Shown here in pieces: positions 130 through 370 of a stretch of 64,000 bases of DNA (positions within the stretch are counted from its first letter, which is position 1; every line of letters begins with the position of its first letter). Source of the stretch: a bacterium. GTDB lineage: Bacteria > Bacillota > Clostridia > Oscillospirales > CAG-272. Made by a program: the position numbers and the translations under genes. The stretch spans positions 13,631 to 77,630 of the forward strand of contig CAVGEY010000009.1 in NCBI GenBank assembly GCA_963628435.1, given 5' to 3'. The notes under the pieces were generated by a model that worked only from the letters and a program-made list of their open reading frames with translations, did not search any database and was not told where the DNA came from.

Positions 130-158
130 TTGACAAGTTGAAAATTCTATGATAAAAT
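130..158 (+). promoter_or_regulatory. sigma-A type promoter upstream of the pil operon (TTGACA, 17-nt spacer, TAAAAT, with TGn extended -10)
   Basis: TTGACA at 130-135, a 17-nt spacer, TG at 150-151 and TAAAAT at 153-158. The -10 region TATGATAAAAT is identical to the promoter in front of rpsJ (50269-50297). Confidence 0.6.
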
Positions 159-268
159 CTTCTAAACAAATAAAATAAATTGGTATTTTTGTACAAATGT
201 GGATAAAATAAAGCAAGTTACGAAAGGTATATGAAAAAGAGAGAAAAATTTGTGCATACTATACAAAT

Positions 269-308
269 TTTCTTTCTTTCTTTCTTTCTTTCTTTCTTTC
301 TTTCTTTC
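269..308. repeat. perfect tetranucleotide microsatellite (TTTC)x10, which is (GAAA)x10 on the minus strand
   Basis: Ten uninterrupted TTTC units were read directly, with C at 272, 276 ... 308. The tract lies between the promoter at 130-158 and pilB, and abuts a TGcTATAAT element at 309-317. Confidence 0.97.
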
Positions 309-317
309 TGCTATAAT
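309..317 (+). promoter_or_regulatory. possible second promoter: extended -10 element TGcTATAAT directly 3' of the TTTC repeat
   Basis: TG at 309-310 and TATAAT at 312-317. The -35 position would fall inside the repeat (no good hexamer), but extended -10 promoters tolerate that. Confidence 0.4.
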
Positions 318-370
318 GACATTGCGGATACCGATTTTTTGCAAAAAGAGAAAAATACGGGGGTGACGGC

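Follow-up and report, generated by a model that had tools for sequence, protein, structure and literature searches.

The window, the whole 64-kb stretch of DNA analysed here, opens with the 3′ end of a DUF4186 gene (1-40, + strand), assigned by gene calls and Pfam matches in contigs that encode an identical PilB. The stop codon of this gene (TGA, 38-40) places the intergenic region at 41-370 (330 bp), which corrects an earlier reading made from the sequence alone. Downstream lies a type IV pilus operon transcribed from the + strand. The first gene, pilB (371-2062, ATG at 371), encodes a 563-aa type IV pilus assembly ATPase with MshEN and T2SSE domains and is preceded by the Shine-Dalgarno (SD) sequence GGGGGTG (359-365), which was found by sequence and is conserved in the sister species. 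It is followed by pilT (2070-3137), pilC (3158-4357), a gene for a 126-aa pilin with an N_methyl motif (4453-4833), a prepilin peptidase gene (4945-5793), pilM (5822-6808) and two small genes, one (6821-7420) having no Pfam match and the other (7417-7959) a weak match to T2SSM. The operon ends with a gene (8075-14920) for a 2281-aa protein that carries a prepilin N-terminal methylation motif (27 bits) and GLUG motifs and that, judging from these motifs, may be a giant pilin-like adhesin. The identity of pilB, proposed in the sequence-only reading, was upheld by its domains, and the operon that it heads is a complete type IV pilus operon.

Within the intergenic region lies a hypervariable tetranucleotide repeat, (TTTC)x10 (269-308, + strand), defined by sequence, by TRF and by cross-strain comparison. 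TRF reported it at 269-309 with a period of 4, 10.2 copies and 100% matches, in agreement with the 40-bp uninterrupted repeat that had been noted from the sequence alone. The ten perfect TTTC units (40 bp) constitute the long, pure tandem repeat of short units that characterizes contingency loci. The flanks on either side, marked by ACAAAT on the left and TGCTATAATGAC on the right, are unique. In the TRF and repeat scans (TTTC)x10 was the sole multi-base simple sequence repeat (SSR) of the 64-kb window. A 16-nt (TTTC)4 probe allowing up to 2 mismatches was expected 0.22 times in shuffled sequence and gave 7 perfect overlapping matches, far above expectation, so that an origin by chance is very unlikely, as had been argued. 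The second-highest TRF score in the window belonged to 54834-54882, where a 15-bp unit, GGCGACCGCAGACAG, is present in 3.3 copies with 91% identity.

The tract is a perfect homopurine/homopyrimidine mirror repeat with GAAA on the template strand, a composition that makes formation of H-DNA plausible. Its position also fits a contingency locus: it adjoins the extended -10 box TGcTATAAT, covers approximately -16 to -55 of the predicted proximal promoter P2, and lies inside the leader of the distal promoter P1. Tracts of (TTTC)≥7 elsewhere were, among the matches listed, sporadic in many phyla and found in mixed contexts, so the type of tract alone is not diagnostic. Only a handful of the matches listed from other bacteria have TATAAT directly next to (TTTC)n.

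Unit number varies among near-identical strains

The comparison set the window beside nine other assemblies of its species, seven recovered by exact look-up of PilB and two more samples by PilC. The PilB proteins encoded by L081-L087, which are independent samples, are 100% identical to that of the window. The window has 10 TTTC units, a single GACATT (318-323) downstream of the tract, and a poly-T run of six (T6, 335-340). The same single GACATT and T6 accompany 9 units in L083 (GCA_963624355.1), 6 units in L084 (GCA_963622175.1) and at least 7 units in L086 (SRR13434654), whose contig ends inside the tract. L085 (SRR13434633) has 6 units, one GACATT and T7. In L081 (GCA_963651975.1) and L087 (SRR13434646) 5 units are followed by a tandem duplicate of GACATT and T5, and in L082 (GCA_963618185.1) and L094 (SRR13434666) the tract reads TTGC followed by 4 TTTC units, with one GACATT and T7.

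These differences stand against a nearly invariant background. Strains differed pairwise by 0-14 SNPs over approximately 5 kb. When seven sequences were aligned over about 5 kb, the indel columns were confined to 269-340 and some 20 SNP columns were scattered elsewhere. The TTTC tract, the GACATT duplication and the T5-T7 run are the only indels in the 5-7.7 kb or so compared, and the offsets of the upstream genes over 3 kb equal the sum of these three sites. L083 and L085 had 0 SNPs in 2,509 sites, yet are 3 units and one T of the poly-T run apart. Gain and loss of whole 4-bp units, which the sequence-only reading had expected, was indeed found, with 4 to 10 units among near-identical strains. 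The repeat number was not invariant across strains (4+1, 5, 6, 9, at least 7 and 10 units), although that reading had named invariance as the outcome that would speak against it. The tract therefore changes by whole units, between strains, far faster than the flanking DNA gains substitutions, and this whole-unit variation (4-10 units against 0-14 SNPs per approximately 5 kb) is far above background, as in contingency loci.

Identical alleles were obtained from different samples and by different assemblers (L082 and L094; L081 and L087), so the unit counts are not assembly noise. The same two pairs indicate that a consensus length can hold for a while in one lineage across samples. The contig end within the tract of L086 presumably reflects the inability of Logan assemblies at k=31 to resolve 8 or more units; being a limit of k=31, the break is not evidence of length heterogeneity. 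The L086 strain also has the exact prepilin peptidase of the window, and look-up with the peptidase returned just one known sample. A MAG contig (L091, GCA_963611235.1) starts 9 nt before the pilB ATG. Exact-protein look-up with PilT gave no record, and scans of JGI metagenomes with the right-flank and left-flank patterns gave 0 matches; the contig scan of genomes with the left flank recovered L001 only. Across the alleles the tract ranges from 16 to 40 bp, with no clustering of lengths and no conserved helical phase, a spread that fits a mixture of ON and OFF states equally well as an absence of function.

The PilB relatives place the window in gut Oscillospiraceae. The nearest species representative is L001 (PilB 94% identical) and the next relatives are at 82% or less. 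In the sister species the intergenic region is 85% identical to that of the window, and the tract is pure and lies against the same -10 box, with 7 units in L001 and 5 in L098. The tract was absent from the relatives with PilB identity of 82% or less, among which those at 81-82% have a different upstream gene. Its absence from the 81-82% relatives indicates that the repeat is young.

Two controls were available for the rate of change. Ten contigs of another species, encoding identical PilB, showed only SNPs and homopolymer changes of ±1 in the 330 bp upstream. Runs of A12 and T12 elsewhere in the genome were unchanged in 1-2 comparator strains whose TTTC count differs. The T12 run occupies the spacer of a promoter-like site at 21655-21682 (TTGTAA, 16 nt, TG-t-TAAAAT) and is the same in one other strain (L232); the gene that follows (21764-23590) encodes a lipoprotein with an SBP_bac_8 solute-binding domain. 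The A12 run is in the spacer of a similar site at 40339-40368 (TTGATT, 18 nt, TG-t-TATAAT), upstream of an SBP_bac_5 lipoprotein gene (40422-42335), and is the same in L233 and L234. The L233 genome is 4 TTTC units apart from the window despite its identical A12 run.

Promoters, upstream elements and leader RNA

The distal promoter P1 (130-158, + strand) consists of TTGACA (130-135), a 17-nt spacer and TG-a-TAAAAT (TAAAAT at 153-158). It matches the consensus at 11/12 positions, has TG preceding TAAAAT and is conserved in the sister species; the near-consensus promoter described in the sequence-only reading is thus confirmed. That reading had also remarked on a -10 region common to the pil and ribosomal S10 promoters, and indeed TATGATAAAAT occurs exactly twice in the window, at 148-158 and at 50287-50297. 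The S10 promoter (50266-50297), upstream of rpsJ/rplC, reads CTATTGACA-N14-TATGATAAAAT. The CTATTGACA block is common to three promoters (126-158, 43118-43149 and 50266-50297), two of which also carry TATGATAAAAT, and the combination looks like the strong-promoter consensus of the organism. The suggestion of the sequence-only reading that a -10 region common with S10 points to a strong basal promoter in need of another layer of control is conjectural.

The proximal promoter P2 is represented by the extended -10 box TGcTATAAT (TGCTATAAT; 309-317, + strand), which follows the last TTTC unit directly, so that the tract ends exactly at the -10 element, as first described. The box was invariant in 11/11 sequences. 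The motif TGnTATAAT is present in 6 copies in the window, all on the + strand, and 5/6 lie in intergenic DNA at a distance of 14-66 nt before a + strand gene, which makes P2 credible as a promoter. With its box 54 nt upstream of pilB, within the 14-66 nt range, P2 is probably a real promoter. For alleles of 5 or more units its -35 position is always TTTCTT (2/6 match), so the core promoter is unchanged with length. The GACATT that is duplicated in L081 and L087 lies around the predicted P2 start site; it and the poly-T run are on the + strand.

Two further elements lie between P1 and the tract. A block of 29 nt (175-203) is identical (100%) in both species and holds the palindrome TTTGTACAAA (188-197); it is a possible operator. 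A search for a regulon within the window found no recurrence of the palindrome above chance and no enrichment. An imperfect inverted repeat or hairpin (233-279, + strand) is formed by the purine tract GAAAAAGAGAGAAAAATTTGTG, which pairs with TACAAAT and the first ~3 TTTC units. Its core arms, ATTTGT-N9-ACAAAT (248-268), are conserved in the sister species, and no other copy of this inverted repeat is present within the window.

Folding of the P1 leader predicted a hairpin in which the purine tract (233-254) anneals to ACAAAT and the first ~3 units (MFE -14.6 kcal/mol, z -2.8); it was weaker in the sister species (z -1.4). Scanning of the leader against Rfam at the gathering threshold gave no family, and at a permissive threshold gave only spurious miRNA-like matches, caused by the hairpin. 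The sequence-only reading had predicted that changes in unit number would alter the structure of the leader. This was not borne out at the ribosome-binding site, since the predicted accessibility of the SD stayed at 0.42-0.53 for 0-14 units, and predicted accessibility of SD and AUG did not follow length from 6 units up. Folding therefore predicts no sequestration of the SD in a length-dependent manner, and an effect on translation is unsupported. The predicted unpaired share of the tract rose from ~0.2 to ~0.4 from 4 to 14 units, because only ~3 units are held in the hairpin. As a candidate terminator, the hairpin and U-rich tract were rejected: the terminator scan made no call, and the hairpin is AU-rich and weak in the sister species.

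Other pil operons have different devices in this position. A c-di-GMP-I aptamer lies directly upstream of pilB in L007 (2825-2913, 68.8 bits) and in L022 (2833-2923, 60.2 bits), and a further partial c-di-GMP-I aptamer is present at the 5′ end of L007. No c-di-GMP riboswitch was found by Rfam in the window, L001 or L081. In a clade with 79% PilB identity (P0033), ten contigs (L102-L111, 1-1258) encode a 747-aa GGDEF/EAL protein immediately upstream of pilB, which again ties c-di-GMP to the pil operon in relatives. Together, the riboswitches of L007 and L022 and the GGDEF/EAL gene of the other clade identify the pil leader as a site of regulatory turnover. Among more distant pilB relatives, L025 has a long (TA)n run (~2790-2815) upstream of pilB beside TTGACT...TGATAGAAT, and L030 has (ATTT)5 upstream of pilB (~1830-1850).

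Proposed mechanism and rival explanations

On balance we favour, with some reserve, the reading that the TTTC tract is an SSR contingency locus that modulates transcription of the pil operon. Here a slippage-prone (TTTC)n would be built into the promoter region of the operon, and P2, 54 nt upstream of pilB, would be functional and initiate transcription near 324. Lying at about -16 to -55, the tract would span the spacer of P2, its -35 position and the zone of its proximal upstream element. Each unit gained or lost would then shift the distance and the helical phase (4 bp, ~137 degrees) between RNA polymerase at P2 and the upstream elements, namely ATTTGT-N9-ACAAAT, A/T-rich DNA, the 175-203 block and P1. 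The triplex-capable purine/pyrimidine stretch between P1 and P2 would change in length as well. The predicted outcome is stepwise or periodic differences in transcription of the pil operon among cells and lineages, with heritable and reversible heterogeneity of piliation as the result. A pure tract flush against the invariant TGcTATAAT, kept in two species, is in keeping with this arrangement.

The strongest competitor, which we regard as possible though clearly less probable, is that the tract is a neutral microsatellite, hypermutable since it is long and pure, whose length has no effect on pilus expression. The alleles of 4 to 10 units show no preferred number or phase, the predicted accessibility of the SD is independent of length, and (TTTC)≥7 tracts, among the matches listed, occur sporadically in many phyla and in mixed contexts, all of which fits neutrality. 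An extended -10 box can also function without a -35, and a perfect one that works without upstream contacts may make the length of the tract irrelevant. Neutrality fits less well with the tract being the only multi-base SSR in 64 kb, with the retention of a pure tract flush with an unchanging -10 box in both species despite 15% divergence of their intergenic DNA, with two more indel hot spots within the next 30 bp, and with the location before a surface-structure operon.

Control of P1 transcripts at the level of RNA or elongation, in which the length of the tract in the leader sets how much P1 transcription reaches pilB, is doubtful. The G-free (UUUC)n RNA with spaced YC dimers could be a Rho loading site or a standby site for a protein or ribosome, or the DNA could form an H-DNA roadblock. 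P1 is near-consensus and conserved and has the tract within its leader, a larger fraction of the tract is predicted to be single-stranded as units are added, and the perfect mirror symmetry of the tract would suit a roadblock. Against this, the leader has no Rfam match, SD/AUG accessibility does not track length from 6 units up, and the AU-rich hairpin drew no terminator call and is weaker in the sister species. The P1 leader of about 205-213 nt is also atypical beside the 14-66 nt at other promoters of the window, and the involvement of Rho is purely conjectural.

A switch based on promoter spacing is improbable. Here the tract would be the spacer between the -35 and -10 elements of P2, and one number of units would give the 17-bp ON spacing. 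The first unit of the L082/L094 allele is TTGC, which puts a TTGCTT at a spacing of exactly 17 bp before TATAAT; in the sister species the 5′ edge of the tract reads TTGAAT, which 3 units would place at 17 bp. The G common to L082/L094 and the sister species suggests an ancestral TTG -35, and the A12 and T12 runs of two other promoters of the window lie within spacers. The window and five other alleles, however, have no TTG upstream of the tract; their best -35 at 16-18 bp matches 2-3/6 (2/6 in the window allele). In the sister alleles the spacing is 25 and 33 bp rather than 17, and the range of 16-40 bp is far beyond the tolerance of a spacer.

We give a similarly small chance to a composite arrangement in which the tract is a length-coded rheostat between tandem promoters. 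Loading of Rho on the G-free (UUUC)n RNA, or a roadblock of (GAAA)n/(TTTC)n H-DNA, would set the abortion of P1 transcription, and the same length would set how upstream elements feed P2, so that one repeat would act on two promoters in opposite senses. An ancestral c-di-GMP riboswitch, a sensor, would have been replaced by a mutational bet-hedging device. The weakest explanation, that the ORF starting at ATG-231 ends at 506, 366 or 315 according to the number of units modulo 3 and is thereby coupled to pilB translation, can practically be dismissed: ORF 231-506 does read through the tract, has an AAAGG motif upstream and can, in one of its other frames, end 4 nt short of the pilB ATG, but the ATG of the sister species runs straight into a stop (ATG TAA) while the tract and flanks are kept, and the minus-strand ORF 162-344 lacks a ribosome-binding site and would be in another frame in every allele.

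Significance and comparison with known systems

In pathogens with small genomes, among them Haemophilus, Neisseria, Campylobacter and Mycoplasma, phase variation driven by repeats is textbook knowledge. Surface structures are the usual cargo of SSR contingency loci (reviews PMC11868660, PMC11475388). The phase variation in Clostridia found in literature searches is that of invertible DNA in C. difficile (PMC6837544, PMC9286219, PMC11868660), and the searches found no description of SSR-based phase variation in this clade. One recent review asks if such loci only seem confined to pathogens because sampling has been biased (PMC11868660). If the contingency-locus reading is true, the mechanism would gain a new clade and way of life, with the pilus operon of an uncultured gut commensal as its target, and would offer a testable case of heterogeneity in adhesion or motility at the level of strains and possibly within hosts. 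It would also be a case of regulatory turnover at a single site, where some relatives have a riboswitch and this lineage a mutable repeat. On the practical side, the tract breaks k=31 assemblies and could act as a fine-scale strain marker.

Several known systems share parts of this design. Repeats within promoter spacers include the TA repeats of H. influenzae hifA/hifB and the homopolymers of N. meningitidis porA/opc and M. hyorhinis vlp. These resemble the pil tract in that a repeat would lie between promoter elements, as in the L082/L094 allele with TTGCTT 17 bp from TATAAT. They differ in that most pil alleles have no -35 upstream of the tract and that 16-40 bp exceeds any spacer. Repeats in 5′ untranslated regions or between promoters, the AGAT repeat of M. 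catarrhalis uspA2 and the 7-bp repeats of H. influenzae hmw1A/hmw2A, give graded expression by repeat number. For P1 transcripts the pil tract would likewise be a leader repeat, situated between two putative promoters and the start codon of an adhesin-type operon. The uspA2 and hmw repeats, though, either follow every mapped start site or are placed between such sites, whereas the pil start sites are predicted only.

Within Clostridia, the type IV pili of C. difficile are described, in passages of PMC6837544 and PMC9286219 that cite this control, as being regulated by a c-di-GMP riboswitch. The likeness is that of a regulatory device in the leader of a pil operon, and the aptamers of L007 and L022 are at the equivalent position; the lineage of the window has no riboswitch, and a mutable repeat takes the place of the ligand sensor.

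SSRs of tetranucleotide or purine-rich units upstream of core promoters are established modulators of transcription, as in nadA (TAAA; PMC2791445) and vlhA (GAA; PMC6258824). The vlhA genes of M. gallisepticum, which encode surface proteins, form a multigene family for which activity is reported at exactly 12 GAA units and at no other number, with the tract ~40 nt upstream of the start, and their mechanism may involve DNA structure (PMC6258824). Like the pil tract, the vlhA repeat is a purine/pyrimidine SSR tens of nucleotides upstream of the start, with conserved flanks and numbers that vary among strains (PMC6258824). The pil locus, by comparison, is a single operon and its tract touches the -10 box.

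In N. meningitidis nadA, the TAAA tract changes how far apart distal promoter elements lie and yields graded, not all-or-none, levels of expression with no frameshift (PMC2791445). The points in common are a tetranucleotide SSR that precedes the -10 and is not part of the ORF, a surface gene (an adhesin gene in nadA), and a number of units that varies among strains (PMC2791445). The nadA tract lies upstream of a normal -35, between mapped NadR operators and an IHF site (PMC2791445), whereas the pil tract runs up to the -10 and replaces the -35, its flanking candidate operator is one inverted repeat, and its host is a Gram-positive anaerobe. At the pil locus the tract upstream of the -10 is flanked by ATTTGT-N9-ACAAAT; no -35, regulator or second operator was identified in this comparison. 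Of the systems considered, it is nadA that the design of the pil tract appears to resemble most closely.
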